A stretch of DNA of 64,000 nucleotides from Amphiura filiformis. Its lineage: Eukaryota. Position numbers and translations under genes: made by a program. Below the pieces are notes generated by a model that did not search any database, was not told where the DNA came from, and saw nothing but the letters and a program-made list of their open reading frames with translations. Where the stretch lies: positions 18,628,946 to 18,692,945 of the forward strand of contig NC_092647.1 of assembly GCF_039555335.1 (NCBI RefSeq), written 5' to 3'. This document shows positions 14,501 to 56,018 of this stretch, piece by piece. Within the stretch, counting starts at the first letter, position 1; every line of letters begins with the position of its first letter.

Positions 14501-15002
14501 TTGTGAATATGTAACTTCTTTTTTAAAACAAAACTGTAGAAATTTTACAAATTGCATAGATTTGTGGATATTTTTTATCATTCTCTTCCTCAACATCCAG
14601 ACAGTCAAAATTAGGTCATATTGGTATGTCTGTCTGTGCAAGTAACTTGCTAAATTTCTCCCTGTGGAGCAAAAAAAAAATCTGAAAAAGTCAAACTTTT
14701 GCTCACCTCGTAAGTGAGTAAAGGTCACGTACATGTGGCATGGGAACACGCTGGCTTCTTACAAACTATTATTAGTTTAAAATTTCTACCCTAAAATGGA
14801 TATATAAAAATTATTTGAACTGTATAGACCTACATGTATGTGTGATTATGAAAGAGTGAGTGCATATGAAAGATAGCGCTTTTAGCAATACATGTCCCAA
14901 AGCTTGCGAAGATTTTAAAATCTATACCAAATGCGTTTTTTCCCACTCTTCCCCCAAACTCATTTTCATATTGGCCTAAACAAAATGAAATATTTTGACT
15001 AA

Positions 15003-15066
15003 GGGACCGTGCACAAACACTTGTTAGGGGGGCCTGATGCAACAACAAAAAACAGTCAACGGTCCC
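15003..15066. mobile_element. Micro-MITE, or a solo-TIR deletion derivative, of the PIF/Harbinger-like element that is found full-length at 23909-24151
   Basis: A 40-bp left terminus (gggaccgtgcacaaacacttgttagggggcctgatgcaa) and a 14-bp right terminus (…caacggtccc) are flanked by a perfect 3-bp TAA duplication at 15000-15002 and 15067-15069. Confidence 0.5.
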
Positions 15067-16619
15067 TAATATACAATTTTACTAGGAAGCACAATGATTC
15101 TACCAACAAAATGGTTTCACCAAACTTTTTTGGTTTCTGGTTATGGACAGGCCCAACAAAGATGCCACGCCCCAAGAAAGTCCCTCTGAAAGAAGTGGAC
15201 TTTTGAGGGTAAAACACGGTAAAAATGTTCAAATTAGAAAGAAAAAATTAAAGAAAGGGATCACTTTTGCCTATAATTCAAACCAGTAGTGTAGTATATG
15301 GGTCATCATATGGGGGCACCGGTCCACCGACCATGATTGGGGGCACTGGGCCTGCATGATGTGGGGGGCACAAGCTATTTTTTGACAATTTTTCCAATTA
15401 GATTTTCTATATTTTCAGATCAATTTAGGGAAGCACATACGTGCGCCCCGTGCCCCTATGACGCTACGCCACTGATTCAAAGTAAACCCAAATCGCTCTC
15501 TCCTGTTTCTTTCTATCCCGTCCTCAACTGCTTGCTTCCTTTCTTTTGCTTAATATAATCAGAACACAGACCCTCTCCTCTTTTTCTAGGGTCTGTGATC
15601 AGAACCATTAATACCATTAAACTTGTCACATCATAAATAATCATTATTAAAGTGCTATTTGGGAATTCACCATGAATTGATCTTCCTCCAGGCTAAACTC
15701 CCTGTAGGTTGTAAATCAACAGGTACCAACATGAGCCAGAATTAAATCTATTTTTGGACAAAAATAATTGGTATAATAAATAGGTACCTATACCTGTCTA
15801 TTTTTAATATGATTAAAAAGTTAATATATATTAACCTCTGGTATCAACAAACATAGACCATAGTCTATGCAACAAACAAGGTTTTGTTTGGGAATTTAAA
15901 AGGTCATATGAGGATGTACCTTGAACAAAATACCAGCAGAGGAAGCTAGATGACAAACATGAGAGGAGACATTTTTGCATATGCATGAGATGTACATGTG
16001 AACTGTACAATATAATATCCTGGGGAAATATCAAGGATTTCTGCATGTCCAGACAATTGTTCACTAATTAATGAGGTCAAAGTATGTTAAATTAAGCATA
16101 TAATAATCATTTAACATTCAGGAAGTTTGATATATTATTGAGATAAATAATACTCATAGACTGAAAAATAATTAACTTCTGATATCACTTACAAACATGG
16201 AGACTTATTGGCAAACGAGGAGATAAAAATAATACTTTCCCTTTTTTGCTTACTTTCAATGTAAATTCTGAACATGGGACTTAAAATTTATTTAGGCCTT
16301 TTATATACACCTAGCTACCTGTGGAAGTTTTATTGCCAAAGTTTGAATAAATATGGACTGATTCCAAATATAATTGCAAATTTCTCTTTTCCCTCATCTC
16401 ATTTACTGATTTAGCAATGTTCATATGGTCACAAGTTATTCCAGTACAATTTCTCAATTTCTGATGATTAATTTGGCACTTTTAAGATGCGCCATTTGTC
16501 TACACATTAATGCCGTCTATAATTGCACAGGTACATGATCCATGATAATATTCAAAGAAACAATTAATTTTACAATGATTAAATTACTACTTTATTAAAG
16601 AACATAATTTTGGATCTTT

Positions 16620-20300: not shown

Positions 20301-23300
20301 TTGGATCCTGGACAAGAGTAACCCTTTGCCTACAGATTTCAGTAATCGGTACAATAAAGATTACCAAAGGAAACTACAAGGTACAAGTTGATTTTAAAGA
20401 TTCGGTCCAAGTCTATCATTATCAGTCCACAAACAGCTGGTCTGTCAATTTAGCCTTGTTGACCATCATCTTCACCGGGGTTGATGTGGCCAATAACAAC
20501 ACAGTGGCCTGTCTCATACCCCAGACATAATGAGAGAAAATAATAAACATACTGAAATCAACTTTTCAGTCCATATTTTTTATGTCTTCAATCTAATTAA
20601 CTTGATTCAGTTGTCACAAAACAGTCATTGACATCAAGCAAATAATGTCAAGGTAAAGTCCCGGGTATAAAGTAGACTGGTTTTTCAATTTTTTTAGTAA
20701 TCATCACTCCCAGAGCCCCCTGTACCTGGGAAGTTCAAAATGTTTTGGCTTTATCAGCAAAGTCTTGGCTGGAAATTAATGTGAACATCTGTTACTTGGG
20801 GTTGTTTATGGTTTAATTTATAACCAATGGTAATAACAGATTTCATTTAATATGTATAATAAAGAAGCAAAATAACATGGGAAAAAGGAACTTTTATATT
20901 GTTTCCTGCACTTTTTATGATCGTAAATCCTGCTTATATTATTATATATGCTTTTGATGATAAAATACAGGTATATTGTTATGTGCAAACATTTGAAGTA
21001 AATCAGGTGGCACCTAACAGACCCATGATATAAACCATGTTTAATACCAATATTTAATTTCATGACAAAGCTGTTTGGTATGATTCTTAAAACATTTGAA
21101 ACTATTTTTTTACACTTCTTTATCTTTAGCCCAATTTTGTTTCCCAACCAAATTTTACTCTTTCATGCCACTGATGTATTGTAATAGTAATAGTAATAGT
21201 ATACAATACTTGCATATTTGTAATGCAAAATATATTTCTAAGGCAATAAATATAATTTATATAATATAAAATAGGGCTGGACATACATGTAATAGAGAAA
21301 ATTACATGTTCAGGTAAAAATCAAGCAAGTTTGGTAGAAATTTTTGGGTGTGGTCCTTATTGGTGGCAGCATAATAGTTTTATGTATGGTGTAGAGTGTA
21401 ATTCAACAGAGTGCGCGAACTGTACAAAAGAGGGCGGTATGTAATAAAAGTCACTGGAAGCTTGCTTCAACCATGCCAAGAGAAGCAACCACAAGTCATG
21501 TTGAGCTGGCACAGTTTATACATAGAGGGCAGCATTTACTGACAATATCTAGTCACTTACAGCAGCAAATCTGCTGATTTGTTGGCCACGCCTACCCTCC
21601 ATGTTCAACTCATGAGGGCAGCAATCATGGAAATAGAGTGATTTGCAGTTTCTTAAGGCCAATTACAATTGATCCTTAGTTTCCTGTTTCCCTCGCGCGT
21701 CCAAAATCAAGAATGGAAAAATATTTAATTATTTTATTTTTATTTAGGTATTTTCATCTTTTAATTGACTTTTTAATTACTTTTATTTGCTAATATCTGT
21801 TTTTGATCATCTCAACTTTGATTACGAATATAAAACAAGAACATTATAGGGTCCCCTACTAATATTAATGTAAAAAATCAATTATAAAGGTAAAATAATT
21901 AAATCCGTAGTCTTAGTCAAAATGACCAAATGGACTGTTGATAATAGTCACGACCACATTTTCAAAATAAAGAAAGTAATAGATAATTAATCATTAATAG
22001 ATAATTAATAATTAATAATTAAAAGTCACCTCGTCCTTTATTTTCAAACTTGAAACAGGAAACTAAGAATTAATTGTGAAGGGCCTAAACCCTAACTTAC
22101 CCAAAAGCCACAAATAGCCACTACCAGTGCAAGTATTCCATGTGATGCGATTGCGTCATAATGCGAAAACACATATGGGCACGGAAAGCTTGGTCGGTCG
22201 TGGGTTAAAAACCGGACCCAAGAAAATTAAAATTCACTTTATCTTCTTCCTTCATTCCTAAGGACACTTGTAACCAGCCTTTTTGAGGCCCCAGCCATTG
22301 CCCCCTTTGTAAGGACTCTTATTACCATCTCTGAGGCTTCAGTCCTTTGCCCTCTAATTAAGGACCCTTATCACCCGCTTTCAGGCCCCAGCCCCTGCCC
22401 TCTCTGTAAACAGCCCCTGTCCCCTCGGTAATGATACTTGCTACCCCCTATGAGGTATCAGCCCTCAATAGGTACTCTTTGAACCCCAACCTTGCCACCC
22501 TCTTTGAGGCACCAGCCACTGCATCCTCAGTAAGGACTTTTACTACCCTCTTTGAGGCCTCAGCCCTTTGCCCCCTCAGTAAGAACCCTTGTCACCCTCT
22601 TTGAGGCCCAGCCCCTTCAGTAAGGACCACTGCCACCCTCTTTGAGGCCCAGCCCCTGTCCCCTCAATAAGGAACCTTGCCACCCTCTTCGAGGCCTCAA
22701 CCCCCTGCTCCATCAGTAAGAACCCTTGTCACCCTCTTTGAGGCCCAAGCTCCTTCAGTAAGGTCCACTGACACCCTCTCTGAGGCCCAGCCCCTGTCCC
22801 CTCAGTAGGGAACCTTGCCACCCTCTTAGAGGCCTTAACCTCTTTACCCCCCCCCCCAGTTGCAACCCTCTGAGGCCCAACCCCCTTAGTAAGAAACCAT
22901 CATCTCTGAGGCCTCAACCCCTTCTCCATCAGTAAGGACCATTGCCACACTCTTTATGGTTCAAACCCTTGCCCCCTCAGTAAGGACCCTTGTCATGCTT
23001 GTTGAGCCCCAGCCACCCTGTCCCCCTTGGTTATGTAGCCGCTTTGAGGCGCCAGCTACTCAGTAAGGACTCTTACTACAATCTTTGAGGCCTCAACCCT
23101 TTGCCCCCTCAGTAAGAACCCTTGTCACCCTCTTTGAGGCTCATCCCCTTCAGTAAGGACCACTGCCACCCTCTTTGAGGCCCAGCCCCTGTCCCCTCAA
23201 TAAGGAACCCAGCCCCTGTCCCCTCAGTAGGGAACCTTGCCACCCTCTTAGAGGCCTTAACCTCTTTACCCCCCCCCCCTGAGTAAGGGCAGTTGCAACC

Positions 23301-23908
23301 CTCTGAGGCCCAACCCCTTAGTAAGAAACCATCATCTCTGAGGCCTCAACCCCTTCTCCATCAGTAAGGACCATTGCCACACTCTTTTAGGTTCAAACCC
23401 TTGCCCCCTCAGTAAGGACCCTTGTCACACTTGTTGAGCCCCAGCCACCCTGTCGCCCTTGGTTACGTAGCCGCTTTGAGGCGCCAGCCACTCAGTAAGG
23501 ACTCTTACTACAATCTTTGAGGCCTCAACCCTTTGCCCCCCTCAGTAAGAACCCTTGTCACCCTCTTTGAGGCTCATCCCCTGCCCCCTCAGTAAGCAGC
23601 CCAGCCCCCTCAGAAAGGACCATTGCCACCTTCTTTTGGGGCCCTAACCCCTTGCTACTCTCTTGAAGCCCTATCCCCCAACCCCCTCAGAAAAGACCAT
23701 TGCCACCTTGAGGCCTCAACCACCCTTCCTACCCTCTTTAGGGACTCTTGCCACATCCCCCAGTTAAGGACCATTACCACCCTCTTTGAGGCCCAAGCCC
23801 TTACTCCCTCAGTAAGGAACCTTGCCACCCTCTTTGAGGCCTCAACCTACAGCCCCCTCAGTAAGGACTGTAGCCACCCTATTTGAGGCCCCAGCCCCTG
23901 CCCCCTTA

Positions 23909-24151
23909 GGGACCATTCACAAACACTTGTAAAGGGGCCTGATGCAAAATGAAAATTCACATTTTTCAGCTCCCCCCCCCTTTGGCCATGAAAAATGAAC
24001 ATCAATCCCATAGAAAATAGTGTGAACTCATGTTCTCTGAGAAAAATTATGGTGATTTTTTAAAGACCCCCCCTTCAGAGGGACAAACATTTTCAGGGCC
24101 CCACCACTTTTTGCATTAGCCCCCCCCATTACAAGTGTTTGTGAACGGTCC
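23909..24151. mobile_element. PIF/Harbinger-like MITE of 243 bp, inserted into the satellite
   Basis: ~40 bp TIRs (gggaccattcacaaacacttgtaaaggggcctgatgcaaa … tttgcattagccccccccattacaagtgtttgtgaacggtcc). Flanking TTA duplication at 23906-23908 and 24152-24154. The satellite unit resumes in register across the insertion. Confidence 0.65.
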
Positions 24152-26535
24152 TTAGTGGGGAACCTTGCCATCATCTTTAAGGTCCCAGCCCCCTTTACTC
24201 CCTCAGTAAGGACCATTGCCACCATCTTTGAGGCCCCACCCACTCAGTAAAGAACCTTGTCACCCTCTTTGAGGTCTCAACCACTTAGGCCTCTGGAAGG
24301 ACTGATGCCACCTACTTGAGGCCCTAGCTCCTGTCCTCTCAGGAAGGACCCTTGCCTCCCACTTTCTTTGGGGCCCCAGGCCCAATGCCTCTCAATTAGG
24401 ACCCCTGTCACCCTCTTTGAGCCCCAGCAACTCTGCCCCCTGAGTTGTCATCCTCTTTGAGGCCTCATCCCCTGTCCCCTCAGTAAACAGCCCTGAGGTC
24501 TCAACCACTTGAGCCTCTGGACGGACTGATGCCACCTACTTGAGGCCCTAGCTCCAGCCCTCTCAGTAAAGACCTTTGCCTCCCACTTTCTTTGAGGCCC
24601 CAGCCCCAATGCCTCTCATTAAGGACCCCTGTCACCCTCTTTGAGCCCCATCAACCACCCTGCCCTCTCAGTTGTCACCCTCTTTGAGGCCTCATCCCCT
24701 GCCCCCTCAGTAAGCAGCCCCTGCCCCCTCAGTAAGGGCCGGCCATTGCCACCTTCTTTGAGGCCTTGACCCAATCAGTAAGAATCACTGCTACCCTCTT
24801 TGAGGCCCTATGCCCTTGCTCCCTCAGTAAAGATCGCTGCCACCATCTTTGAGGCCATTATCTCCCTTTCCTCTTAGTAGGGACTCTTGCCTCCTTCTTT
24901 GAGGCCGCAGCCACCAAGTTAAGGACAATTGCCACCCTCTTTGAGGCCACAGCCCTTGCTCCTTCACCAAGGCATCAACCTCAACCCCTTGCCCCTCAAT
25001 AAGGATCACTGCCACCCTCTTTGAGGCCCCAGCCCCTGTCCCCTCAGTAAGGATCCTTGCCACTCTCTTTGAGACCCCAGCACCTACCCCTTAGTAAGAA
25101 ACCTTGCCATCATCTTTGAGGCCTCAACCCTCTGCCCCCTCAGAAAAGACCATTATCACTCTCTTTTAGGCCCCAGCCCCTGCCCCCTTAGTAAAGAACC
25201 TTGCCATCATCTTTGAGGCCCAGCCCCTTGCTCACACAGTAAGGAATGTTGCCACCCTCGTTAAGGTCCCATCCCACTCAGTAAGGAACCTTGCCACCTT
25301 CTTCGATGCCCCAACCCCTTGTCTCCTCAATAGGGACCATTGCCACCCTTTTAGAGACCCAGCCCCTTCCCCTTAGTAAGAAACCTTGCCATCATCTTTT
25401 GAGGCCTCAACCTCCTGCACCATCATCAGTAAGGATCATTGCCACCCTCTTTTATGCCCCAGCCCCTTGCACCCTCAATAAGGACAGTTGCCATCCTCTT
25501 TGAGGCCCCAGCCCCTCCCTTCAATAAGGACAATTGCCACCCTCTTTGCCCTTGCTCCCTCAGTAAGGACCCTTGCCACCCTCTTTGAGCCCCAGCCACC
25601 CTGTGTCCTTGGTTAAGTAGCCTTGTCACCCTCTTTGAGGCACCAGTCCCTACCCCCTTGTTAAGGACTCTTATTACCATCTTTGAGGCCTCAATCTTTT
25701 GCCCCCTCAGTGAGGATCCTTATCACCAGCTTTCAGGCACCAGCCCCTGCCTCCTCCATCAGCAGCCCCTGTCCCTTCAGTAAGGACTCTTGCTACCCTC
25801 TGAGGCATCAGCCCTCAGTAGGTACCCTTGCTACCCTCTTTGAACCCCAACCACCCTGCCCATTCAGTTATGAGCCTTGTCACCCTCTTTGAGGCACCAG
25901 CCAATACCCCCTCAGTAAGGACTCTTAATGTTATCCTCTTTGAGGCCAAGCCCTTGTCCCCTCAGTAAGGAACATTGCCACCCTCTTAGAGGTCTCAACC
26001 TCTTTCCCCCCTGAGTAAGGGCAATTGCCACCCTCTTTGAGGTCCAACCCCTCAGTAAGAAATCATCATCTTTAACGTCTCACCCCCTGCTCCATCAGTA
26101 AGGACCATTGCCACTCTCTTTTAGGCCCCAGCCCCTTGCCCCCTCAGTAAGGACCCTTGTCACCCATGTTGAGCCCCAGACCCTCAGTTAGGACTCTTAC
26201 TACAATTTTCGAGGCATCTGCCCTTTGCCCCCTCAGTAAGAACCCCTGTCACCCTCTTTGAGGCTCATCCCCTGCCCCCTCAGTAAGCAACCCCAGCCCC
26301 CTAAGGACCATTGCCACCTTCTTTTGGGGCCCTAACCCCTTGCTACCCTCTTTGAGGCCTCTAACCCTCTGCCCCCTCAGTAAAGACCATTGCCACCTTT
26401 AGGCCTCAACCACCCTTGCCACATCCCTCAGTTAAGGACCATTGCCATCCTCTTTGAGGCCCAAGCCCTTGCTCCCTCAGTAAGGAACCTTGTCAACCTC
26501 TTTGAGGCCTCAACCTACTGCCCCCCTCAGTAAGG

Positions 26536-26619
26536 CTCCCTTCAGAGGAATAAAATTTTTCAGGGCCCGCCCCTTTTTGCATTAGCCCCCCTCCATTACA
26601 AGTGTTTGTGAATACTGCC
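26536..26619. mobile_element. 5'-truncated copy (3' 84 bp) of the same MITE, in the homologous position of the duplicated satellite block
   Basis: It matches 24068-24151 and is followed by the same satellite flank (ttagtgNggaaccttgccatc…). Confidence 0.55.
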
Positions 26620-29600
26620 TTAGTGAGGAACCTTGCCATCTTCATTAAGCCCCCAGCCCCTTTGCTCCCTAAGTAAGGACCATTGCCACCATCTTTGAGA
26701 CCCCACCCACTCAGTAAAGAACCTTGCCACCCTCTTTGAGGTCTCATCCACTTTGAGCCTCTGGAAGGACTGGTGCCACCTACTTGAGGCCCTAGCCCCT
26801 GTCCTCTCAGTAAGGACCTTTGCCTCCCACTTTCTTTGAGGCCCCAGCCCCAATGCCTCTCATTAAGGACCCCTGTCACCCTCTTTGAGCCCAAGCAACT
26901 CTGCCCCTGAGTTGTCACCCTCTTGAGGCCTCATCCCCTGCCCCTCAGTAAGCAGCCCTGCAGTGCCCCCTCAGTAAGGACCATTGAGACCTTGACCCCC
27001 TCAGTAAGGATCACTGCTGCCCTCTTTGAGGCCCTATCCTCTTGCTCCCTCAGTAAAGATCATTGCCACCTTGAGGTCTCAACCACCATTGCTCTCAGCC
27101 ACCCTAGTAACGACCCGTGTCACTCTCTTTGAGCCTCAGCCACCCTAGTAAGGACCCTTGTCACTCTCTTTGAGCCTCAGCCACCCTAGTAAGGACCCTT
27201 GTCACTCTCTTTGAGCCTCAGCCACCCTAGTAAGGACCCTTGTCAGCCACCACCCTAGTAAGGACCCTTGTCAATGAGGACCATTCCTACCCTCAAGGTC
27301 CCAGCCCGACCCCTCAGTAAGGACCATTAACACCCTCTTTGAAACTCCACCCGCTCAGTAAGGACCATTACTACCCTCTTTGAAGCTCCCACCCCCTCAG
27401 TAAGGACTATTACCAACATCTTTGAGGTCTCAGTCCCATGCCCCTTCAGTAAGGACCCCTGCCACCCTTTATGAGGCCAAGTACCCTGCCCCCTAAGGAC
27501 CCTTGCCACAATCTTTGAGGCCTCAGCCCCCTAAGAAAGGAGTTACCCTCTTTGAGGCCCCTACCCCACAATCCCCCAGTAAGGACCCTGGTCACCCTTT
27601 TTGAGGCCTAGTCCCCATCACCTCAATGAGGACCCTTCCTACCCACTGAGGCCTCATCACCTGTCCCTCAGAAAGGACTATTACCACCCTCTTTGAGGCC
27701 TCGGTTTCATTCTCCTTCAGTAAGGACCTGTGCCACAATCTTTGAGGAATCTGCCCCCTCAGTAAGGACTCTTGTTACCCCTCAAAGAGGCTCCTACCCC
27801 TGACCCCCAGTAAGGACCCTTGCTACCCTTTTTGACTCCTCAGACCCCTGCCCACTCAGTAAAGACACTTGCTACCCTATTTGAGGCCCAGCCCCCTTAG
27901 TAAAAATCTTTGCTACCCTCCTTGAGGCTTCACACCATTTGTCCTCAGTAAGGACCATTGCCACCCTCTTTGAGGAATCTGCCCCCAGTAAGGACCCTTG
28001 CTACCCTTTTGACTCCTCAGACCCCTGCCCACTCAGTAAAGACACTTGCTACCCTATTTGAGGCCCAGCCCCCTTAGTAAAAATCTTTGCTACCCTCCTT
28101 GAGGCTTCACACCATTTGTCCTCAGTAAGGACCATTGCCACCCTCTTTGAGGAATCTGCCCCCAGTAAGGACCCTTGCTACCCTTTTGACTCCTCAGACC
28201 CCTGCCCACTCAGTAAAGACACTTGCTACCCTATTTGAGGCCCCAGCCCCCTTAGTAAAAATCTTTGCTAACCTCCTTGAGGCTTCACACCCTTTGTCCT
28301 CAGTAATGGCCATTGCCACCCTTTTTGAGGAATCTGCCCCCAGTAAGGATTTTTGTTACACTCCTAGAGGCTCCTACCCCCTGACCCCCAGTAAGGACCC
28401 TTGTTACCCTCTCAGACTCCTCAGACCCCTGCCTCTCAGTAAAGACTCTTGCTACCCTATTTGAGGCCCAGCCCCTGCCCCCTTAGTAAAAATCTTTGCT
28501 ACCCTCTTTGAGGCTTCACACCCTTTGTCCTCAGTAAGGGCCATTGCCACCCTTTTTGAGGAATGTGACCCATCAATAAGGATTTTTGTTACCCTCCTAG
28601 AGGCTCCTACCCCTGACCCCCAGTAAGGACCCTTGCTACCCTCTTTGACTCCTCAGACCCCTGCCCATCAGTAAATACTCTTGCTCCCCTATTTGAGGCC
28701 CAGCCCCTGCCCCCCTTAGTAAATATCTTTGCTACCCTCTTTGAGGCTTCACACCCTTTGTCCTCAGTAAGGGCCATTGCCACCCTTTTTGAGGAATCTG
28801 ACCCCTCAGTAAGGATTTTTGTTACACTCCTAAAGGCTCCTACTCCATGACCCCCAGTAAGGACCCTTCCTACCCTCTTTGACTCCTCAGACCCCTGCCT
28901 CTCGGTAAAGACTCTTGATCCCCTATTTGAGGCCCAGCCCCTGTCCCCTTAGTAAAGATCTTTGCTACCCTCTTTGAGGCTTCACACCCTTTGTCCTCAG
29001 TAAGGGCCATTGCCACCCTTTTTGAGGAATCTGACCCATCAGTAAGGATTTTTGTTACCCTCCTAGAGGCTCCTACCCCCTGGCCCCCAGTAAGGACCCT
29101 TGTTACCCTCTTTGACTCCTCAGACACCTGCCCCTCAGTAAAGACTCTTGCTACCCTATGTGAGGCTCCAGCCCCTGCCCTCTTAGTAAAGATCTTTGCT
29201 ACCCTCTTTGCGGCTTCACACCCTTTGCCCTCAGTAAGGACCATTGCCACCCTCTTCGAGGCCTCAACCCCCTGTCCCCTTAGTAAGGATCTTTGCAACC
29301 ATCTTTGAGGCCTCAGGCCCATCTCAGCCTCTCGCCTACTTAGCAAGGACCCTTGTAACCCTCTCAGGCCCCAACCCCTCATTTAATACACTTAGAACTC
29401 CCTTAGCACACCAGCCCCCTCAATTCACAGTAAGGACTGTTACCAGCCTCTTTTGAGGCCCCTACTACCTACTTTGAGGACTCAGCCCATCAGCAAGGAC
29501 CCTGGCTACCTGATTTGCTGCCTCAGCTCCCTCTTCCCATGAATTGGCAGTCTCTTTACAGGGATATACCATTCAGAATCCACACACCCCTCCCCCGACA

Positions 29601-29761
29601 CAGTCATTACAGCCGTTTATTATGTCCATCTTTATCAAGGGTACTCTAAATTTGATATTACGTAACATGTAGTCTATCTGCAATCTACCTTTTGAGGGGT
29701 GTTTATTTACTGGCAAAGATCTTGGACAGGGACCATAGGTGGTTTGAACGAGGCATCAAGG

Positions 29762-31446
29762 AGAATCAATCTTGCTTCTTGTAAAGGAAGTTGCAAGAAC
29801 AAATGGATTACACAGTGTGAGTGTGAGAATCAATCTTGATTCTTGTAAAGGAAGTTTGCAAGAACTAATGGGTTACAGTGCGAGTGTGAGAATCAATCTT
29901 GATTCTTGTAAAGGAAGTTTGCAAGAACTAATGAATTACACAGCGTGAGTGTGAGAATCAATCTTGATTCTTGTAAAGGAAGTTGCAAGAACTAATGGGT
30001 TACAGTGTGAGTGTGAGAATCAATCTTGATTCTTGTAAAGGAAGTTTGCAAGAACTAATGGATTACAGTGTTAGTGTGAGAATCAATCTTGATTCTTGTA
30101 AAGGAAGTTGCAAGACCTAATGGATTACACAACATGAGTGTGAGAATCAATCTCGATTCTTGTAAAGGAAGTTTGCAAAAACTAATGGATTACACAGTGT
30201 GAGAACCAATCTTGATTCTTGTAAAGGAAGTTGCCAGAACTAATGGATTACACAGCAAGAGTGTGAGAATTAATCTTGATTCTTGTAAAGGAAGTTTGCA
30301 AGAACTAATGGATTACACAGTGTGAGAACCAATCTTGATTCTTGTAAAGGAAGTTGCCAGAACTAATGGATTACACAGCAAGAGTGTGAGAATTAATCTT
30401 GATTCTTGTAAAGGAAGTTTGCAAGAACTAATTGATTACACAGTGTGAGAACCAATCTTGATTCTTGTAAAGGAAGTTGCCAGAACTAATGGATTACACA
30501 GCAAGAGTGTGAGAATTAATCTTGATTCTTGTAAAGGAAGTTTACAAGAACTAATTGATTACAGTGTGAGAACCAATCTTGATTCTTGTAAAGGAAGTTT
30601 GCAAGAATTAATGGATTACACAGTGTGAGTGTGAAAATCAATCTTGATTCTTGTAAAGGAAGTTTGCAAGAACTAATGGATTACACAGTGTGAGAACCAA
30701 TCTTGATTCTTGTAAAGGAAGTTGCCAGAACTAATGGATTACACAGCAAGAGTGTGAGAATTAATCTTGATTCTTGTAAAGGAAGTTTGCAAGAACTAAT
30801 TGATTACAGTGTGAGAACCAATCTTGATTCTTGTAAAGGAAGTTTGCAAGAACTAATGGGTTACAGTGTGAGTGTGAGAATCAATCTTGATTCTTGTAAA
30901 GGAAGTGGCAAGAACTAATGGATTGCACAACGTGAGTGTGAGAATCAATCTTGATTCTTGTAAAGGAAGTTGCAAGAACTAATGGGTTACAGTGTGAGTG
31001 TGAGAATCAATCTTGATTCTTGTAAAGGAAGTTTGCAAGAACTAATGAATTACACAGCGTGAGTGTGAGAATCAATCTTTATTCTTGTAAAGGAAGTTGC
31101 AAGAACTAATGGGTTACAGTGTGAGTGTGAGAATCAATCTTGATTCTTGTAAAGGAAGTTTGCAAGAACTAATGAATTACACAGCGTGAGTGTGAGAATC
31201 AATCTTGATTCTTGTAAAGGAAGTTGCAAGAACTAATGGGTTACAGTGTGAGTGTGAGAATTAATCTTGATTCTTGTAAAGGAATTTTTCAAGAACTAAT
31301 TGATTACACAGTGTGAGTGTAAGAACCAATCTTGATTCTTGTAAAGGAAGTTGCAAGACCTAATGGATTACACAACGTGAGTGTGAGAATCAATCTCGAT
31401 TCTTGTAAAGAAAGTTTGCAAAAACTAATGGATTACACAGTGCGAG
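29762..31446. repeat. Minisatellite of 59-60 bp unit (gagaatcaatcttgattcttgtaaaggaagtt(t)gcaagaactaatggattaca + a variable 8-12 bp tail), ~28 copies
   Basis: Regular tandem array. Each unit contains the 16-bp palindrome gaatcaatcttgattc. A single related unit recurs at 63935-63965. Confidence 0.95.
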
Positions 31447-31796
31447 TTAAAATTGACATTGGGTATTTTTAAAATGGAAATTTGGCACAAAAAACGAGGA
31501 AAACAATAGTATTGACTAAGTTGAAGCCCCATTCAAATACATGGAGCTAATTTCTCCACATTTTTCATGTAAAATGACCTATTTTGTCTTTATTATACAG
31601 CTTTCACAGCTTTTACAGCTCAACCACTTGCAGGCTATGTTAGCACATCTATGCTTATAACAAAGGTGCAATTTTTATGATTTTCTGAATGAGTTAATCA
31701 CTGAATGGGCCTTTAAAAAATGCCAATTTTTGTTCTTTTCATTAACCAATAAATGCCAGAGGCACACTATTTGCCCTCTACGTGCGACAAACCAAA

Positions 31797-32432
31797 ATGG
31801 CGGATTTACCCTAGCATTACACACAGGGCAATTTTGAGTTGGTACTCTTTGGGTATAATCTTTATGGCGGATTTACCATAGCATTACACACTGGGCAATA
31901 TTGAGTCGGTACTCTTTGGGTATTATCTCTATGGTGGATTTACCATAGCATTACACACTGGGCAATATTGAGTCGGTACTCTTTGGGTATAATCTTTATG
32001 GTGGATTTACCATAGCTTTACACACTGGACAATATTGAGTCGGTACTCTGGGGGTATAATCTTTATGGTGGATTTACCATAGCATTACACACTGGGCAAT
32101 ATTGAGTCGGTACTCTTTGGGTATAATCTTTATGGTGGATTTACCATAGCATTACACACTGGGCAATATTGAGTCGGTACTCTTTGGGTATAATCTTAGC
32201 GACTCAATATTGCCCAGTGTATAAATCTTTATGGTGGATTTACCATAGTGTTACACACTGGGCAATATTGAGTAGGTTCTCTTTGGGTATAATCTCTATA
32301 ATGGTGGATTTACCATAGCATTGTACACACTGGGCATTTTGAGTTGGTACTCTTTGGGTATAATCTCTATGGTGGATTTACCATAGCATTACAAAGCGCA
32401 ATTTTGAGTTGGTACTCTTTGGGTATAATCCC
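31797..32432. repeat. Tandem repeat of 66-67 bp unit (ctttatggtggatttaccatagcattacacactgggcaatattgagtcggtactctttgggtataat), ~9.5 copies
   Basis: Regular period between successive tttatggtgg motifs. One unit carries a 23-bp local inversion at 32197-32222. Confidence 0.9.
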
Positions 32433-32521
32433 TTTAAACATTAGAAGCCATATCTGTATTTTCATGAACACAAGCTAATGTAAATGTCTAACCCTTGTAA
32501 ATGAAGCCCGAATACCTTTAA

Positions 32522-32853
32522 GGGGGTACTACACCCCTGCCCAATTTTGTGCCTATTTTTGCATTTTTCTTAAAAATTATAGCGCATTGGTGACAAGTAA
32601 GATATGTATATTATAGGGGCAAGGACTACTGCACTGGAAATTTTATTTCAGCACAGACAACAGTTGTGGAGTTACAGTCAAAAATGAGGGAAAACCAATA
32701 TTTGATCAATAAATCAATAACTACTTGCCTTGAGTTGCTGAATTTTAAGTGCAGTTGTTGTAGTCCTTGCCCCTATAATATACATATCTTACTTGTCACC
32801 AATGCACTATATGCAAAAATAGGCACAAAATTGACCAGGTGTGTAGTACCCCC
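32522..32853. mobile_element. Foldback/MITE with ~100 bp terminal inverted repeats and TTAA flanks, piggyBac-like
   Basis: The left arm gggggtactacacccctgcccaattttgtgcctatttttgcat… is mirrored by …atgcaaaaataggcacaaaattgaccaggtgtgtagtaccccc. TTAA occurs at 32518-32521 and 32854-32857. Confidence 0.65.
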
Positions 32854-33149
32854 TTAAAAAATAGTTGGCATATCGGAAATCCGCTCAAAAGCAGTGCTGG
32901 TCACCAAAACAAAATTATTATGGTCAATAAAAAATATACACAACAAATCTTAAGATGAGACCACCTCAAACCAATGAGGTGTACATTTACTGTTATTTAA
33001 GAATATAGTAAACAAAGTATTTACAACTGTGTGAGTACAAAAGTAGGAAATAGTAACTAATATTTTAAAAATATGCATTATAGTGAATATATTAATGTAA
33101 GTGTATGTGCGCTTGTATTAGGAAAACTAGTGGAAACAGATATATGAGA

Positions 33150-34297: not shown

Positions 34298-34700
34298 TCT
34301 CAAAAGTAAGAGTGACCTTCACTGGTAAATTATGCCATGATTATGCACAATCAGAATAGGATTGGGTCATCAAGGTCATGCTTACATGTGAGTTTACATG
34401 CAAATCTTGTTCACACTGGCCTTACATTTGAATGTAGCTTGTTACAATATCTTACATGTAAAATTGTCACTTGTAACTTGCATGTAGCTACATGCGAGTG
34501 CGTTTAGACGGGTACTACATGCAAGTTTACATTCAAATGTAGTTACAAGCGACTTTACAAGCAATCGTCTGAACAAGCCTAATATAGTGAACTTTTACAG
34601 CAAGAAGTATAATGGTATTTCAGTGAAGTAGTAAAGTTCAGTCTGACAGGCATTTCTAACAAAATCATGCTTAAGGTGGTTATGGAGGCATTATAAAAGT

Positions 34701-35312
34701 GCTCTAAACATGTTTTAAACAGATTAATTGAGTAGAGCAAAGTACACTGATCAATATACCTTGTGTTTGGAGTCAATCGGACATACGGTTTTTCAAAATA
34801 TATCAATTTATATTTTCTTTGTATCTTATTGTTTTTTTCAATTATCAATCAAGTTAATGAGCTAAAATGACTGGAGAAGCTCATTTACATATAATTTTTT
34901 GCCAATATTTTGCTAAAAAATCCATGCATAAATGTTCAGGGTACTTTTATTTTGCATAATTTTATGCCCTGAAACTTAGTCAAAGTGTTTCTAATATGTT
35001 CCTAATTAGTATTATATTAGTGAAACTTTGACCAAGTCATTTGCATATTTGCATAATTAATTAGCATTTATGCAACATTTATGCTCATTGATTATTAGAA
35101 ATTAATATTGGCAAAAATTACATATTAATGAGCCTTTCCAGTCCTTTTGGCTCATTAACTATATTGATTATTGACAAAAACAATAGGATACAAAGAAAAT
35201 ATAAATTGATGTATTTTGGAAACCGTATGTCCGATTGACTCCAAACAAAAGGTATATTGATCAGTGTACTTTACCCTACTCAATTAATCTGTTTAAAACA
35301 AGCTCAAAGCAT
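34701..35312. repeat. Large near-perfect inverted repeat. Arms are 34701-34885 and 35139-35312 at ~90% identity, with a ~250 bp spacer that is itself palindromic at its ends.
   Basis: The reverse complement of the right arm aligns base-for-base with the left arm. Confidence 0.8.
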
Positions 35313-35370
35313 TTTCTAATTTCTAGAAAATGCATCCAATACCACCTTAAGGATGAGGATGTGGTGACAA

Positions 35371-36790: not shown

Positions 36791-36972
36791 GCTATTCCAG
36801 TTGAAATCCACACAATCTATGGAAGACATGACCTTAATCTTCCGCACAAGGAGTGCAAATTTCAAATGGGGCTACTGAATAGGTACTTCCACTTAAAATC
36901 TACACTCCCTCTGTGGGAGATTAAGGTTATGCCTTCCATACAGGGTGTATGGATTTCAACTGGAATAGCCCA
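36791..36972. mobile_element. Hairpin-unit MITE family H, dimer copy (attccagttgaaatccatacaccc…ggaagacatgaccttaatcttcc… / …gggtgtatggatttcaactggaat)
   Basis: A ~180 bp near-palindrome made of two ~90 bp units, each unit itself a hairpin. Confidence 0.75.
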
Positions 36973-37160
36973 TTGATCTCATTTCTTATGTCAAAGTTCA
37001 CCAAACCTCCATTAACTATTGTAGCTCAAAATTTGACCTCAAGTCATAGAGTATGAGTTTGTGTACCCGAGAAAATCATTCTATAAATGTACAAGCATAT
37101 TGTGTTCATAGAAATGTATTGTGACAGATGAACATGAAGAATACTGCACACTGGCAGAAT

Positions 37161-37440
37161 GGGCTATTCCATTTAAAATCCACACTACCCCTGTGGAAGA
37201 TTTTGGAAATATGTTCCACAAAGGGAATATGAATTTCAAATGGAATGAACACATTAGCAGCTCCGTTTGAAACTCACACTCCCTCAAGGGAAGATTCAGG
37301 TTGAATCTTTCTTAGAGGGTGCATGGAATTCAAATGGATCTGCCTAATGCACTCATTTCATTTGAAATACATACTCCCCCTGTGGGAGATATTTCCAAAA
37401 TCTTCCACAGGGGGAGTGTGGATTTTAAATGGAATAGTCC
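37161..37440. mobile_element. Family H, trimer copy (three ~95 bp hairpin units)
   Basis: Three successive units of tccatttRaaatccacac-ccctgtggaagat-loop-atcttccacagggg-gtgtggatttYaaatgga. The same trimer architecture occurs at 43821-44088 and 63403-63694. Confidence 0.7.
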
Positions 37441-37763
37441 AATCATGCTATAATTACTTGTCTGACAATGTAAAGATATTATAGTACAAACTGTCTGCAT
37501 GTCTTCCTCGAGGCAGTAAAGTAAAATCAAATTTTGTGATTTTCTCAAAAACTGCCCAATTTTGCAGGAATCGATTATGCTAGTTGAATTTCTTGTATCA
37601 TCTCCTTTCTAAAAATGTATCCTTTTAAATACTTATCATTATTACGTTATAGTAGAAAACAAATCTAAATTACTGACTCGATAAAGGCATATGTTCAACC
37701 AAGTGTTTATCTGAATTCAACTAAGTTTGAAGTAAATACCCGTCATGATACATGAGATAAAGT

Positions 37764-42071: not shown

Positions 42072-42210
42072 AAACTATGATGCAATTTTATCAGTTTCGC
42101 CGTCGAACAGTGATTAAAGGAGGAAATAGGAAAAGTGATCCCACCCGGGAATTGAACCTAGGACCTCTGGTTTACGAGGCCAGAGCCTTAACCACGGGAG
42201 CTTCATAATT
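42072..42210 (-). mobile_element. tRNA(Thr-like)-derived SINE copy on the minus strand
   Basis: The reverse complement gives …gtggttaaggctctggcctcgtaaaccagaggtcctaggttcaattcccgggtgggatcac plus the tail cttttcctatttcctcctttaatcactgttcgacggcgaaactgataaaattgcatca. It is inverted relative to 42340-42478. Confidence 0.55.
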
Positions 42211-42339: not shown

Positions 42340-42478
42340 AAACAAGTGGCCAAGTGGATAAGGCGCTGGTCTCGTAAACCAGAGGTCCTGGGTTCAATTC
42401 CCGGGCCGGATCACTTTTCCTATTTCCTCCTTTAATCATTGCTCGATGGCGAAACTGATAAAATTGCATCATAATTTT
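42340..42478 (+). mobile_element. tRNA(Thr-like)-derived SINE copy on the plus strand
   Basis: It has a CGT anticodon-loop region and a GGTTCAATTCC T-arm, but no pairable acceptor stem. Its tail is identical to that of the minus-strand copy. The two copies lie head-to-head 130 bp apart. Confidence 0.55.
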
Positions 42479-43443: not shown

Positions 43444-43612
43444 GGGCTGTTCCAGTTGAAATCCGTAACCCCTATGGAAGACATCACCTTAATATGAATT
43501 TCAAATGCAATCGTCCATTTAGGTACCCCCCATTTGAAATTCACACTCCCTGTGTGGGAGACTAAGGTCGTAACTTCCATAGGGGGTGTATGGATTTCAA
43601 ATGTAATAGACC
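43444..43612. mobile_element. Family H dimer copy
   Basis: Termini gggctgttccagttgaaatccgtaacccc … gggggtgtatggatttcaaatgtaat. Confidence 0.7.
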
Positions 43613-43820
43613 AGTACAAAATATTCTAGGCTTGGGACCAGAACTCGCTTTGTTCCCAAAAAAAGTTTGAAAATGTTAATCACTCTGGAAAAATCAAGAA
43701 ATTTTCAGAAAAATGTATTTTTCCAGTTCTTTTTGAGTAAAAATTTTGAAAAATTGAACATGGCTACTTTAGACACAGTAAGTGTATCCAAGCATAAGCT
43801 TCATAATTAGTTACAAATAG

Positions 43821-44088
43821 AGCTAATCCACTTAAAGAACACACTCCCCATGTGGAAGATTTTGGAAATATTTTCCACAGTGGGAGTATAAATTACCACA
43901 TTAACTAATTCTATTTGAAACTCACCCTCCCTCTGTGGAAGATCAACATTTAAATGTTCTCAGTGGGTATATGAAATTGAAATGGAGCTGCCTATAATGT
44001 TCATTCCATTTGAAATTCATACTCCCCCTGTGGAAGATATTTCCTAAATCTTCCACAGCTGGAGTATGGATTTTAAATGGAATAGCCC
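43821..44088. mobile_element. Family H trimer copy
   Basis: Collinear with 37161-37440. Confidence 0.7.
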
Positions 44089-44435
44089 TGAGCAAGTTCT
44101 GGTTCCAAGTCCTCAATATGACACTAACTTACAACAATAAGGTGTTATTGGTGACTGGTGCATTAACACAACTATGGAAGCAACAGATCACAACCCAGGA
44201 ACACTGTCAACTGTCATACTCATGAGCATGTCAACTAAATTGTGTAGCCCCCCCCTGAGGATATATATAGATTATGCATCTAATGATATTAGTGCTTTGA
44301 AAACTTATACCCAACAACTGATGAGGAACTAGCATCATACCCCAAGTGCTTTTTATACCCTTGTGCATTTAAGGTCATTTCTAGGGTTAGGATCACTGAA
44401 CTTTGTACGAGAGAATACAAATTACAAATAGACAA

Positions 44436-44618
44436 TTGGGGAACTTCCATTTGAAATACTCCAGTTGCGGAAGATATAGGTAAAGTCATATACAGGGGGA
44501 GTATGGGGTTTCAAAATAATTAACCCTGCCCAATTCCATTTGAAAAACATACTCCCTCTGTGGAAGACTTGTTTTAAATCTTCCACAGGGGAATGCCAAG
44601 TTTCAATTGAAATAGCCT
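44436..44618. mobile_element. Family H dimer copy, followed immediately by a family S fragment at 44650-44840
   Basis: Hairpin units ttccatttgaaatactcc…ggagtatggggtttcaaaat and ttccatttgaaaaacatactccctctgtggaagac…. Confidence 0.65.
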
Positions 44619-45276
44619 ATATTGAGCCCCTCTCTCTAACATATTATCACTATGGACCACAATGGCCTCATCCCAATGGCATAGTTCAATAACCTCAATG
44701 AAACAATCAAAGTGTAAAATTTGACCTCAAGTTGCAGAGTACGAGTTTTTGTACACAAATTTTTAAAGGTCATTCAATGAATGTACAACTGTATTGGGGT
44801 TTAAGAACTGTGCCCTGATAGATGAACATGTTGTGAATCCTAGTGTTTACTCATCATTTTGGACTTTTTTAGTTATTTCCAACTAGGAATTTTCCAGGGT
44901 GTGAAATCTCGCCCTAATTCAAAAGCTTAAATGCAGCCCAAATATGAGAACGTGTCCCAAATATGAGAATGTGTCAAATATAATAGAGACAAGAATGTAT
45001 ACCATTACAATAGTGCATTGCGGGAAATTCTCAGAAAGGTCTACGCGCAAAATGTGATCCTCGGAAAACCCCAAGTTTACATCTTAATACATTTCGATTC
45101 ATTTGCATTGTAAATAACTTGGTTCTCAATATAAGACTTTGACAGGTGACAGTGACCCCGATAATGGAATGATCGCACCTTTTCTGTACAGCGGCTTTGG
45201 AGATTACTTCTTGAGTTGAACATTGAGATGATTCTCTGCTTACTCCCTCTCCTTCATTCAGAGGAATGATTGCGTC

Positions 45277-46039: not shown

Positions 46040-46126
46040 ATAAACTTACCTGCATTTCCTTCATCTGATTATCCATATAGAGTTGACCTGAGCTTGCAGG
46101 GGATCTGATCAGGTCTCCTGCTGCTG
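46040..46126 (-). CDS. Tandem-duplicated exon copy a (QGRPAAGDLIRSPASSGQLYMDNQMKEMQ), 87 nt, phase 0-0
   Basis: On the minus strand: acceptor cccccag|caaggg, donor gcag|GTAAGT. It has a single open frame. It differs from copy b by a 24-nt in-frame deletion. Confidence 0.45.
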
Positions 46127-46181
46127 GTCTCCCTTGCTGGGGGCTGGATCATAAGAAGGGAGTTTAACCCTAACCCTGAGG

Positions 46182-46292
46182 ACAAACTTACCTGCATTTC
46201 CTTCATCTGATTATTCATATAGAGTTGATTGTCTACATCCATGAAGAATTGACCTGAGCCTGTAGGGGATCCGAATGGGACACCTTCTGCTG
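46182..46292 (-). CDS. Tandem-duplicated exon copy b (QGRPAEGVPFGSPTGSGQFFMDVDNQLYMNNQMKEMQ), 111 nt, phase 0-0
   Basis: Acceptor …ccgtcag|caagg, donor aatgcag|GTAAGT. Only one of its three frames is open. Confidence 0.5.
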
Positions 46293-46357
46293 GTCTTCCT
46301 TGCTGACGGCTGGATCATAAGAAGGGAGTTTGACCCTAACCATGATGACAAACTTAC

Positions 46358-46464
46358 CTGCATTTCCTTCATCTGATTATCCATATAGAGTTGATTGTCT
46401 ACATCCATGGAGAATTGACCTGAGCCTGTTGGGGATCTGAACGGGTCACCTTCTGCCTCCCTTG
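46358..46464 (-). CDS. Tandem-duplicated exon copy c (…AEGDPFRSPTGSGQFSMDVDNQLYMDNQMKEMQ). It has a 4-nt deletion near the 5' end, so an alternative acceptor 8 nt downstream (ggag|gca) is needed to keep phase 0.
   Basis: The same donor CAG|GTAAGT. It has a unique open frame encoding the conserved peptide. The acceptor position is uncertain, so this may be a decaying copy. Confidence 0.4.
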
Positions 46465-46519
46465 CTGGGGGCTGGATCATAAGAAGGGAGTTTGACCCTT
46501 ACCCTGGCGATTAACTTAC

Positions 46520-46633
46520 CTGCATTTCCTTCATCTGATTATCCATATAGAGTTGATTGTCTACATCCATGGAGAATTGACCTGAGCCTGTTGGGGATCC
46601 GAACGGGTCACCTGCTGCTGCGGCTCTCCCCTG
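46520..46633 (-). CDS. Tandem-duplicated exon copy d (QGRAAAAGDPFGSPTGSGQFSMDVDNQLYMDNQMKEMQ), 114 nt, phase 0-0
   Basis: Acceptor cagcccccag|cagggg, donor aatgcag|GTAAGT. Single open frame. The intron separating it from copy c is only 55 nt. Confidence 0.5.
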
Positions 46634-47015
46634 CTGGGGGCTGGTTCCTGAGAAGGGGGCCTGCCCAAAAGGGTCGCTTGCAGCTCCACCCGACCCTGTT
46701 TAAAGAAATTTAAAGGCATAGTTGTGAACCTTTGTTTAAGTGATAACAATCAAAAATGAGTGACTTATTAAACAAATGAACATCCATTTTAGAACTCTGA
46801 TAAAATCAGAGACAAGCACAATCAGGCATGAGACTGCACTTTCCTAAAAAAACAAAAAAAACTGAAAATGCGCGTGAAATTGGGCAAAAAGTACCAAAAA
46901 CAGGCTGAAATTAAATAAAGTTGCGGAAATTTTGACTATAAAAAAAACTGAATTCAGTTTTTAAACTGAAAATTCTCATGCCTGCACAATTTTGACCTTT
47001 GCCGTTTTATCTTAA

Positions 47016-55835: not shown

Positions 55836-55842
55836 CAAATTG

Positions 55843-56018
55843 GCCTATTCCAGTTGAAATCCACATACCCCATATGGAAGACATGTCCTTAATCTCTCAC
55901 ACAGGGAGTGTGAATTTCAAATGGAGCCACACAACTCCTTTGAAACGTACATCCCATGTGTGGAAGATTAAGGTAATGTCTTCCATAGGGGGTGTATGAA
56001 TTTCAATTGCATTAGCCC
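55843..56018. mobile_element. Family H dimer copy
   Basis: cctattccagttgaaatccacatacccc … gggggtgtatgaatttcaattgcattagccc. Confidence 0.7.

Follow-up and report, generated by a model that had tools for sequence, protein, structure and literature searches.

The 7.28-kb tandem array described here is very probably a non-coding locus of the minisatellite or short-satellite class, shaped by repeated local out-of-register exchange and by replication slippage. No function of its own is demonstrable for this locus. It lies in a stretch of 64,000 nucleotides (the window), and one of its monomers carries a MITE of 243 bp, part of which recurs in a second, paralogous block of the array. In this second block (B) the last 84 bp of the MITE and the TTA are kept beside a deletion of ~200 bp, which supports the order insertion, block duplication, deletion. 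This is the chronology that had been proposed in the preliminary description; the MITE family copies, the alignment of the blocks and their divergence support it, and extra events are needed. The features are collected in Table 1.

The array and its monomer

Self-alignment chains define one uninterrupted tandem array with all units in the same orientation (22259-29538), within a few bases of the limits given earlier, 22258-29530. The monomer HMM finds 151 units between 22259 and 29528, all on the + strand, and none in the rest of the 64-kb window. The array monomer consensus is CCCTCAGTAAGGACCCTTGCCACCCTCTTTGAGGCCCCAGCCCCTTGC. TRF gives a 48-bp consensus for the array, and the lengths and spacings of the monomers range from 41 to 50 bp with modes at 49 and 41 bp. 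The length of the unit, 45 bp in the preliminary description, is better given as 48-49 bp plus a 41-bp class. The monomers are ~20% diverged from the consensus and ~65-80% identical to one another. At both edges of the array they are degenerate, scoring ~20-25 bits versus 30-36 bits in the interior, and degenerate edges are classical for arrays homogenised by unequal exchange (PMC5615363).

The GC content of the array is 53% and the C-rich strand is the + strand. CpG is strongly depleted, with an observed/expected ratio of 0.06; 26 CpG were counted where ~103 were expected in simulation (minimum 80), a roughly 4-fold under-representation. This depletion hints at cytosine methylation, and from its pattern the near-absence of CpG may reflect methylation of the array in the germline. 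The array is non-coding, as its monomers vary in length and stops occur in all frames, and no homologue was found for its longest ORF. The signals reported here lie far above chance level: BLAST E-values were 1e-20 or lower, and shuffled sequence gave zero pattern matches.

Local higher-order periods of 138, 422/533, 224, 41, 177 and 233 bp, and also of 95/282 bp, were detected, and several of them occupy separate domains of the array. The periods of 180, 230, ~240 and ~530 bp noted earlier were found again as 177/178, 226-233, 224 and 533 bp. The multimers are more alike (97-100% identity for the 177-bp, 90-94% for the 233-bp and 98% for the 422-bp units) than the monomers. The K2P layers are 0-0.03 for the 177-bp repeat, 0.02 for the 422-bp duplication, 0.06-0.12 for blocks A and B and 0.06-0.11 for the 233-bp repeat; each estimate is based on 80-360 aligned bases, they overlap within error, and only their coarse order is secure.

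Table 1. Positions in the window of the array, its MITE copies and internal repeats, and the neighbouring arrays
Feature	Position	Strand	Evidence
Internally deleted 64-bp MITE family member, outside the array	15003-15066	+	TAA at 15000-15002 and 15067-15069
Whole tandem array	22259-29538	+	TRF, self-alignment, monomer HMM, CpG count, edge scores
Block A, MITE-bearing	22301-24844	+	Robust paralogy from 23208; weaker 22301-23207
Young tandem duplication of 422-432-bp period (22786-23149 vs 23208-23582, K2P 0.02); single copy in B	22786-23582	+	
Interval of block A matching the ~200-bp deletion in B	23862-24067	+	Read from sequence; gap placed by alignment
Complete 243-bp MITE	23909-24151	+	TIRs, TTA TSD, hairpin
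224-bp tandem duplication in A (K2P 0.09 between copies)	24270-24720	+	
Domain between the blocks, only weak 48/95/282-bp periodicity, no paralogue after B	24845-25652	+	TRF, self-alignment
Block B, paralogue of A	25653-27070	+	Robust paralogy from 25946
84-bp 3' MITE remnant, block B	26536-26619	+	Alignment, retained TTA
Monomer variant of 41 bp, amplified locally and very recently (3.7 copies, 98% identity)	27094-27245	+	TRF, self-alignment
177/178-bp higher-order repeat, four monomers, 3.1 copies, youngest layer	27804-28349	+	
226-233-bp higher-order repeat, five monomers, 4.8 copies	28159-29261	+	
Adjacent unrelated array, 65-bp unit, 127-bp dimer period	29761-31447	+	TRF
Adjacent unrelated array, 67-bp unit	31797-32430	+	TRF

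The MITE and the two blocks that carry it

Judged by its sequence, the 243-bp element is a true PIF/Harbinger-type MITE of a dispersed family, and its TIRs, its TSD and the family bear out the earlier assignment of a PIF/Harbinger-like MITE with a TTA duplication to this position. The TIRs are 22 bp long (left GGGACCATTCACAAACACTTGT, right GGACCGTTCACAAACACTTGT) and match at 21 of 22 positions, the right TIR lacking one terminal C, and TTA flanks the element at 23906-23908 and 24152-24154. The element folds as a long hairpin (z = -5.6) and has no ORF of at least 68 aa. It is inserted at CCCTTAGTG, a variant of the monomer core. Members of the family, whose TIR consensus is GGGACCGTTCACAAACACTTGT, are also carried by 9 independent contigs of the WGS set JAAUXV01, with 74-80% identity overall and near-identical TIRs; in the window the family is represented by two insertions and one duplicated remnant. 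Of 18 termini in the window and the 9 other contigs, 9 have TTA and 6 have TAA as flank, 15 in all, which is the signature of PIF/Harbinger, and the flank pairs match for window copies 23909 and 15003 and for L003 and L004. A 3-bp duplication of TTA/TAA is known for PIF/Harbinger (PMC2836001, PMC2213677). No transposase domain was found among the ORFs of the 64-kb window, and a PIF/Harbinger transposase from another locus may have mobilised the MITE in trans.

Strict BLAST and global alignment showed that 23208-24844 in block A and 25946-27070 in block B are 89-94% identical, versus a background of ~65%. Weaker paralogy (83-88%) extends back to 22301 in A and 25653 in B, and the duplication probably reaches back to these positions; left of 23208 the alignment is ambiguous because of internal repeats. 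The robust size of the duplicated block is 1.6 kb in A versus 1.1 kb in B, and probably 2.5 kb versus 1.4 kb in all. The two copies are ~2.5-3.3 kb apart, with a K2P of ~0.06-0.12 and A-to-B offsets of 2738, 2692, 2467 and 2243 bp. A block of at least 1.2 kb duplicated ~2.63 kb away, as first described, was thus a correct and slightly conservative reading, and the self-alignment called for at that time has been run and establishes that the two blocks are paralogous.

Relative to A, block B has gaps of 41, 22, 202, 219 and 16 bp. Further differences between the blocks are the 422-bp tandem duplication in A, a 224-bp unit that was gained or lost, and indels of no more than one monomer (the 41, 22 and 16 bp). 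The one 224-bp copy in B is about equally close to both copies in A (K2P 0.05-0.06). Nothing beyond B corresponds to the 808-bp domain between the blocks. The duplication thus departs from a clean tandem one, and extra events have to be assumed.

The MITE remnant in B is followed by the retained TTA at 26620-26622 and corresponds to positions ~160-243 of the MITE with 89.5-90% identity (K2P 0.106). What B lacks is ~200 bp, made up of 160 bp of the 5' part of the MITE and 40 bp of the adjoining array, in agreement with the earlier observation that only the 3' 84 bp survive and that the 5' half and ~40 bp of flank were deleted. The deletion junction in B reads TAAGGC (26531-26536), with the break after TAAGG. 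In A, TAAGGAC (23862-23868) and TAAAGAC (24061-24067), two imperfect direct repeats, lie at the edges of the interval that is missing from B.

Proposed history and alternative readings

The ~151 monomers descend from one unit of ~48 bp, and a PIF/Harbinger-type MITE inserted into one of them at TTA. The pattern suggests that the MITE-bearing block was then duplicated by unequal exchange between misaligned monomers, through crossing-over between sister chromatids or homologues. The ~200-bp deletion in B may be due to slippage or to microhomology-mediated repair involving TAAGGAC and TAAAGAC. The 224-bp unit was probably duplicated already before the split of A and B and later collapsed in B, and the 808-bp domain may be a later expansion or insertion. 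The amplifications of 41, 177, 233 and 422 bp are younger and lie in separate domains.

Could the two MITE copies have arrived separately? PIF/Harbinger elements prefer TTA or TAA, and the array offers 91 TTA, 142 TAA and 24 CTTAG as targets. It is nevertheless barely credible that two elements inserted independently into similar monomers at equivalent TTA sites. The flanks of the MITE site are 93-94% identical between A and B over hundreds of bases on either side, as opposed to ~65% for unrelated monomers, and A and B agree in the site, in the orientation and in the TTA that is retained. Both MITE copies have TTCAGAGG, GCATTAGC and CCATTAC, which are absent from other family members, the K2P of the remnant matches the divergence of the flanks, and half an element cannot insert alone. 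It is very unlikely that the multi-layer structure is wholly or partly an artefact of assembly, either from collapsed or expanded repeats or from the tandem joining of two haplotypes or loci. Assemblies are prone to errors in tandem arrays, and since two of the 177-bp units are 100% identical, the number of these units may be incorrect. However, five indels and a divergence of 6-12% separate A from B, and B is embedded in the array with no duplicated non-satellite flank, a picture unlike that of a haplotig join or a simple mis-duplication; the graded divergence of the layers together with the degenerate edges is biologically coherent.

Other readings concern what kind of locus this is. The 65/127-bp, 67-bp and 48-bp arrays are mutually unrelated, so that three different arrays are indeed juxtaposed over 22.2-32.4 kb, as was first reported. 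The presence of three unrelated arrays within 10 kb, together with known examples of transposons with internal tandem repeats and of satellites that arose from such repeats (PMC5615363, PMC7004042), could be taken to mean that the array, possibly with its two neighbours, is the cargo or the internal repeats of a large mobile element with many dispersed copies, such as a Helitron or Helentron. This is highly improbable, as neither inverted nor direct terminal repeats enclose the arrays, their immediate flanks are unique in the window, no ORF of the window has a transposase or helicase domain, and the window and the searched collections hold no second copy of the monomer. The absence of detectable coding domains from the entire window and the depletion of CpG, which would also fit methylation, are compatible with silent chromatin but do not demonstrate it. 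This depletion, the clustering of several arrays and the gene-poor, repeat-rich 64-kb surroundings would suit a chromosomal satellite that functions as a marker of centromeric, pericentromeric or subtelomeric heterochromatin. Such a role is unlikely for an array of only 7.3 kb and ~151 units whose monomers are highly diverged and not homogenised. Telomeric repeats (TTAGGG, TTAGG, TTTAGGG or TTAGGC, two or more units in a row) are absent from both strands of the 64-kb window. Short arrays of unrelated sequence are also scattered elsewhere in the window (46.1 kb and 48.5 kb). Clustering of short arrays thus appears to be general in this genome, and short satellite-like arrays in euchromatin are common and well documented (PMC5615363, PMC4675708). 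The heterochromatic, pericentromeric or subtelomeric context put forward in the preliminary description is thus unsupported.

It is also quite unlikely that the array is more than a passive repeat. In one variant of this proposal it could be one site of a lineage-specific satellite which is abundant in an animal with undescribed satellites and serves there as a mark of methylated heterochromatin or of a centromere; in the other it could be a landing pad, a preferred target of PIF/Harbinger. The extended PIF target reportedly given by Zhang et al. in PNAS in 2001 is CWCTTAGWG. The insertion site fits 8 of the 9 positions of this target, and one or two substitutions separate the conserved monomer core (CCCTCAGTA/CCCTTAGTG) from it. 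If either variant were true, arrays of this kind would trap MITEs and carry them during amplification, and MITE fragments would in this way enter satellite higher-order units.

Known systems and significance

With units of 41-50 bp and a length of 7.28 kb, the array falls in the minisatellite range of 10-100-bp units and kb-scale arrays; satellite DNA in the strict sense has hundreds to thousands of units in long arrays that lie in constitutive heterochromatin (PMC5615363). Like GC-rich minisatellites and short satellite arrays, the locus has head-to-tail units, compositional asymmetry of the strands, local higher-order periods of 3-9 monomers and degenerate end monomers, and its turnover would likewise proceed by unequal exchange and slippage (PMC5615363). 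It differs from them in that canonical G-quadruplex motifs are not enriched and in that its 48-bp monomer is unmatched in the searched literature and has no independent copy in the searchable sequence collections.

The MITE resembles Tourist-like PIF/Harbinger MITEs such as mPing/Ping and mPIF/PIF (PMC2836001, PMC2213677), as it is small, non-coding and hairpin-forming, has TIRs and a TTA/TAA TSD, and belongs to a dispersed multicopy family with internally deleted derivatives. However, the ORFs of the window revealed no autonomous partner that shares its TIRs, which would be expected to encode a DDE transposase and a second Myb/MADF-like protein, and no published description of the TIR sequence GGGACCGTTCACAAACACTTGT was found. 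The host is apparently an animal and not a plant, because related copies of the MITE lie on contigs with fibronectin-III exon-like ORFs. A parallel can also be drawn with the layers of human centromeric alpha-satellite (PMC9859433), where an inserted transposon carried along by later segmental amplification likewise provides a relative order and where younger homogeneous higher-order domains lie beside older diverged monomers. There the arrays span megabases and the marker is a retrotransposon, whereas here the array spans 7 kb, shows no evidence of centromere association and is marked by a DNA-transposon MITE.

The locus reveals no new mechanism, element class or function and brings no open question within reach of a test; a known kind of array growth is recorded neatly in it. 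Old diverged monomers, a dated MITE insertion, a kb-scale duplication, a microhomology-bounded deletion and very young amplifications are all found within 7.3 kb. It is a small, clean and fully resolvable example of tandem-array turnover, which may be of use in teaching or as a marker locus that combines a VNTR with polymorphism in the presence or absence of the MITE and in the deletion.

The array and its higher-order layers

The array of head-to-tail monomers chains to itself at every multiple of its unit between window positions 22259 and 29538 with ~62-69% identity in a permissive self-alignment, and between 22.4 and 29.3 kb TRF calls a series of overlapping arrays, their units being 41-49 bp long. 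A profile built from 82 cleanly delimited monomers recognises 151 monomers from 22259 to 29528, all on the plus strand, and has no match outside the array on either strand of the window. The spacing of the monomers is most often 49 bp, with a secondary mode of 40-42 bp. Monomers diverge from their consensus, CCCTCAGTAAGGACCCTTGCCACCCTCTTTGAGGCCCCAGCCCCTTGC, at ~20% of column positions. The monomers at the two ends score ~25 and 20 bits versus 30-36 bits for interior ones, and low-scoring monomers at both ends are the usual signature of an array that has been homogenised from within. Both the unit length and the array length are those of a conventional minisatellite (PMC5615363). The 48-bp monomer itself appears to be an old dimer, built from two ~24-bp units, CCCTCAGTAAGGACC... 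and CCCTCTTTGAGGCCC...; a fuzzy match of one monomer half also finds the other half at 18-30 bp spacing, and TRF finds local periods of 20-29 bp within the array.

The domains of the array were delimited by strict self-BLAST and an ungapped offset scan (table). The preliminary description had placed a satellite-like array at 22258-29530 with periods of 180, 230, ~240 and ~530 bp; the extent agrees with ours and all four periods were recovered, together with additional periods of 138, 422 and 41 bp. The youngest layers are the 177-bp repeat and the 41-bp run.

Other readings of the array were considered and rejected. It is not coding, as monomer lengths are variable and mostly not multiples of three. 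Its ORFs reach at most 170 aa, and the longest, on the minus strand within the 233-bp repeats, found no relative in a search of 5.8 billion proteins and is not recorded as a called gene. It is not a G-quadruplex minisatellite, having 2 canonical motifs (loops ≤7) versus ~3 in shuffled sequences; only with loops relaxed to ≤12 are there 36 motifs in the array. Nor is the monomer structured, since the fold of a consensus dimer is no more stable than that of shuffled sequences (z = +0.4 and +0.5 for the two strands), and Rfam places no known RNA family at the array.

Repeats, higher-order layers and other elements of the window
Feature	Window positions	Remarks
138-bp period	22493-22840	88% identity
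422-432-bp unit x2	22526-23582	98% identity, K2P 0.02; one subsegment again at 533 bp (96%)
224-bp unit x2	24270-24720	K2P 0.09
48/95/282-bp periodicity	24845-25652	weak; no other layer
41-bp variant	27094-27245	3.7 copies, 98% identity
Diverged monomers	27250-27740	no higher order
177/178-bp repeat	27804-28349	four monomers; 3.1 copies, 97-100% identity
226-233-bp repeat	28159-29261	five monomers; 4.8 copies, 90-94% identity
65/127-bp array	29761-31447	
67-bp array	31797-32430	
Palindromic MITE-like element, ~340 bp	32517-32858	directly after the 67-bp array
Inverted repeat, hairpin-like	34696-35315	arms ~200 bp, 87-92% complementary
~95-bp dispersed repeat family	36876-37446, 43517-44624, 55833-56019, 57810-58010, 61939-62138, 63403-63700	
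SINE-like inverted pair, tRNA-related	42072-42195 and 42354-42477	92% complementary
166-bp tandem array	46071-46657	3.5 copies; unrelated to 48-, 65/127- and 67-bp arrays
117/235-bp tandem array	48517-49283	6.5 copies; unrelated to 48-, 65/127- and 67-bp arrays
tRNA-Cys(GCA)	52889-52961	intact-looking
Inverted repeat, hairpin-like	59450-60081	arms 178 bp, 85% complementary

Chromosomal context and neighbouring repeats

The window is gene-poor, repeat-rich, eukaryotic-looking DNA with a GC content of 33-42% outside the array. Between 22 and 30 kb GC rises to 49-54%, and on the plus strand C strongly outnumbers G. There are only six ORFs of at least 110 aa in the window, and in the 116 stop-to-stop ORFs of at least 68 aa outside the array the sole protein-domain match was a weak one, to a disordered-repeat model. 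Three different arrays had been described as juxtaposed over 22.2-32.4 kb, and both neighbours of the 48-bp array proved to be real and unrelated to it and to each other. Two further short arrays occur at 46.1 and 48.5 kb, so clusters of short arrays are apparently typical of this genome rather than evidence of heterochromatin. Short satellite-like arrays are well documented in euchromatin (PMC5615363, PMC4675708). A subtelomeric context found no support, telomeric repeats being absent from the window. Nor was there support for an array carried by a transposable element, as it has no flanking LTRs or TIRs and the 116 ORFs encode no transposable-element domains; the three arrays are not enclosed by anything that would make them a single mobile unit, and the sequence flanking them, including 21.7-22.26 and 29.54-29.76 kb on either side of the 48-bp array, occurs only once in the window.

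The array contains 26 CpG dinucleotides, an observed/expected ratio of 0.06 versus 0.48 for the rest of the window. When a CpG-free consensus was diverged with the observed substitution spectrum in 300 runs, ~103 CpG were obtained (minimum 80), a comparison in which fewer monomers are independent because of the duplicated blocks. The deficit is consistent with decay under germline methylation, without proving it, and points towards a silenced state.

The remaining elements of the window are of several kinds. The ~95-bp hairpin-forming dispersed repeats have at least 13 copies in both orientations, often paired (e.g. ...CCATTTGAAATTCATACTCCCCCTGTGGAAGAT...ATCTTCCACAGGGGGAGTGTGGATTTTAAATGGAAT...), and gave no literature match for their strings and no protein-level match. 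The only Rfam hit in the window is tRNA-like (42347-42404, at 42.3 kb) and lies at the SINE-like pair; ARAGORN reports one tRNA gene, the tRNA-Cys(GCA). The palindromic element that follows the 67-bp array has the ends TTAAGGGGGTACTACACC... and ...GGTGTGTAGTACCCCCTTAA and may represent a TTAA-duplicating family distinct from the MITE family in the array. The two large inverted repeats are probably further non-autonomous DNA transposons.

The MITE and its family

The monomer pattern is interrupted at 23909-24151 by a 243-bp element that forms a long hairpin (z = -5.6) and has 22-bp terminal inverted repeats with TTA on each side, as expected from the MITE with a TTA duplication that had been reported there. 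A search with its 5' end recovered nine contigs from one public WGS set, JAAUXV01. These carry full or partial copies with 74-80% identity overall and almost invariant termini, GGGACCGTTCACAAACACTTGT. TTA or TAA abuts 15 of the 18 termini in the JAAUXV01 copies and the window, and four complete elements have matching target-site duplications. At 15003-15066, a 64-bp member flanked by TAA/TAA, its termini intact but its interior deleted, shows that the family has been active in more than one place in the region. TIRs and a 3-bp TTA/TAA duplication structurally define PIF/Harbinger-type (Tourist-like) MITEs (PMC2836001, PMC2213677), and on structure the family would be of this type; no autonomous partner was found. 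A coral MITE (PMC2872659) is unrelated, as it belongs to a different, piggyBac-type family with TTAA duplications.

Exon-like ORFs encoding fibronectin-III and MFS domains occur on some of the JAAUXV01 contigs, which suggests that their host DNA comes from an animal related to the source of the window. This is supported by a second repeat shared between window 53492-53607 and positions 600-710 of one contig of the set, L008 (80% identity over 117 bp). The MITE had no match when genome and viral collections were scanned for its pattern, and the satellite was found neither in metagenome, prokaryote-genome and viral contigs nor by translated search. Literature searches with strings from the satellite and its MITE, the arrays next to it, the dispersed repeat and the SINE-like element brought up nothing beyond irrelevant matches to primers, and exact-protein look-ups and protein searches were likewise without a hit. 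The repeat family and the MITE family are both undescribed, but the kinds to which they belong are already known.

Block duplication, deletion and the order of events

Block A (23208-24844), which contains the full MITE, aligns to block B (25946-27070) with 89-94% identity by global alignment and strict BLAST. The blocks are paralogous. Leftward the paralogy is weaker but above background, extending to 22301 and 25653, respectively, at 83-88% identity. Relative to A, block B has gaps of 41, 22, 202, 219 and 16 bp. Of these, the 202-bp gap has taken away the 5'-most ~160 bp of the MITE together with 40 bp of adjoining array that held the left TTA, so that an 84-bp remnant survives at 26536-26619, followed by the right TTA. 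This matches the earlier observation that only the 3' 84 bp survive and that ~40 bp of flank were lost. In A the missing interval is bordered by TAAGGAC (23862-23868) and TAAAGAC (24061-24067), and the junction in B reads TAAGG-C. The deletion probably occurred by slippage or microhomology-mediated repair between these two motifs.

Could A and B have received the MITE independently? The flanks of the two copies are far more similar than arbitrary monomer pairs, which are ~65% identical. The remnant and the full MITE also share states that other family members lack (TTCAGAGG, GCATTAGC and CCATTAC), and the K2P distance between them, 0.106, matches that of the flanks (0.06-0.12). Together, the A/B identity, the shared states and the matching divergence make two independent insertions very unlikely. 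The chronology proposed previously, MITE insertion, then block duplication, then deletion, is supported.

Within this order, the 422-bp unit, which B has only once, was clearly duplicated in A after the A/B split. The two A copies of the 224-bp unit differ from each other by the K2P distance in the table versus 0.05-0.06 from the single copy in B; the unit had probably been duplicated before the split and was then reduced to one copy in B, a tentative reading because the errors overlap. Between A and B lie 808 bp that have no counterpart beyond B, which means that the duplication was more than a simple tandem event or that this domain expanded later. A transposon likewise serves as a time marker of array turnover in centromeric satellites, although on a far larger scale (PMC9859433). 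The locus is best read as a textbook case of tandem-array turnover through unequal exchange and slippage, timed by a transposon.
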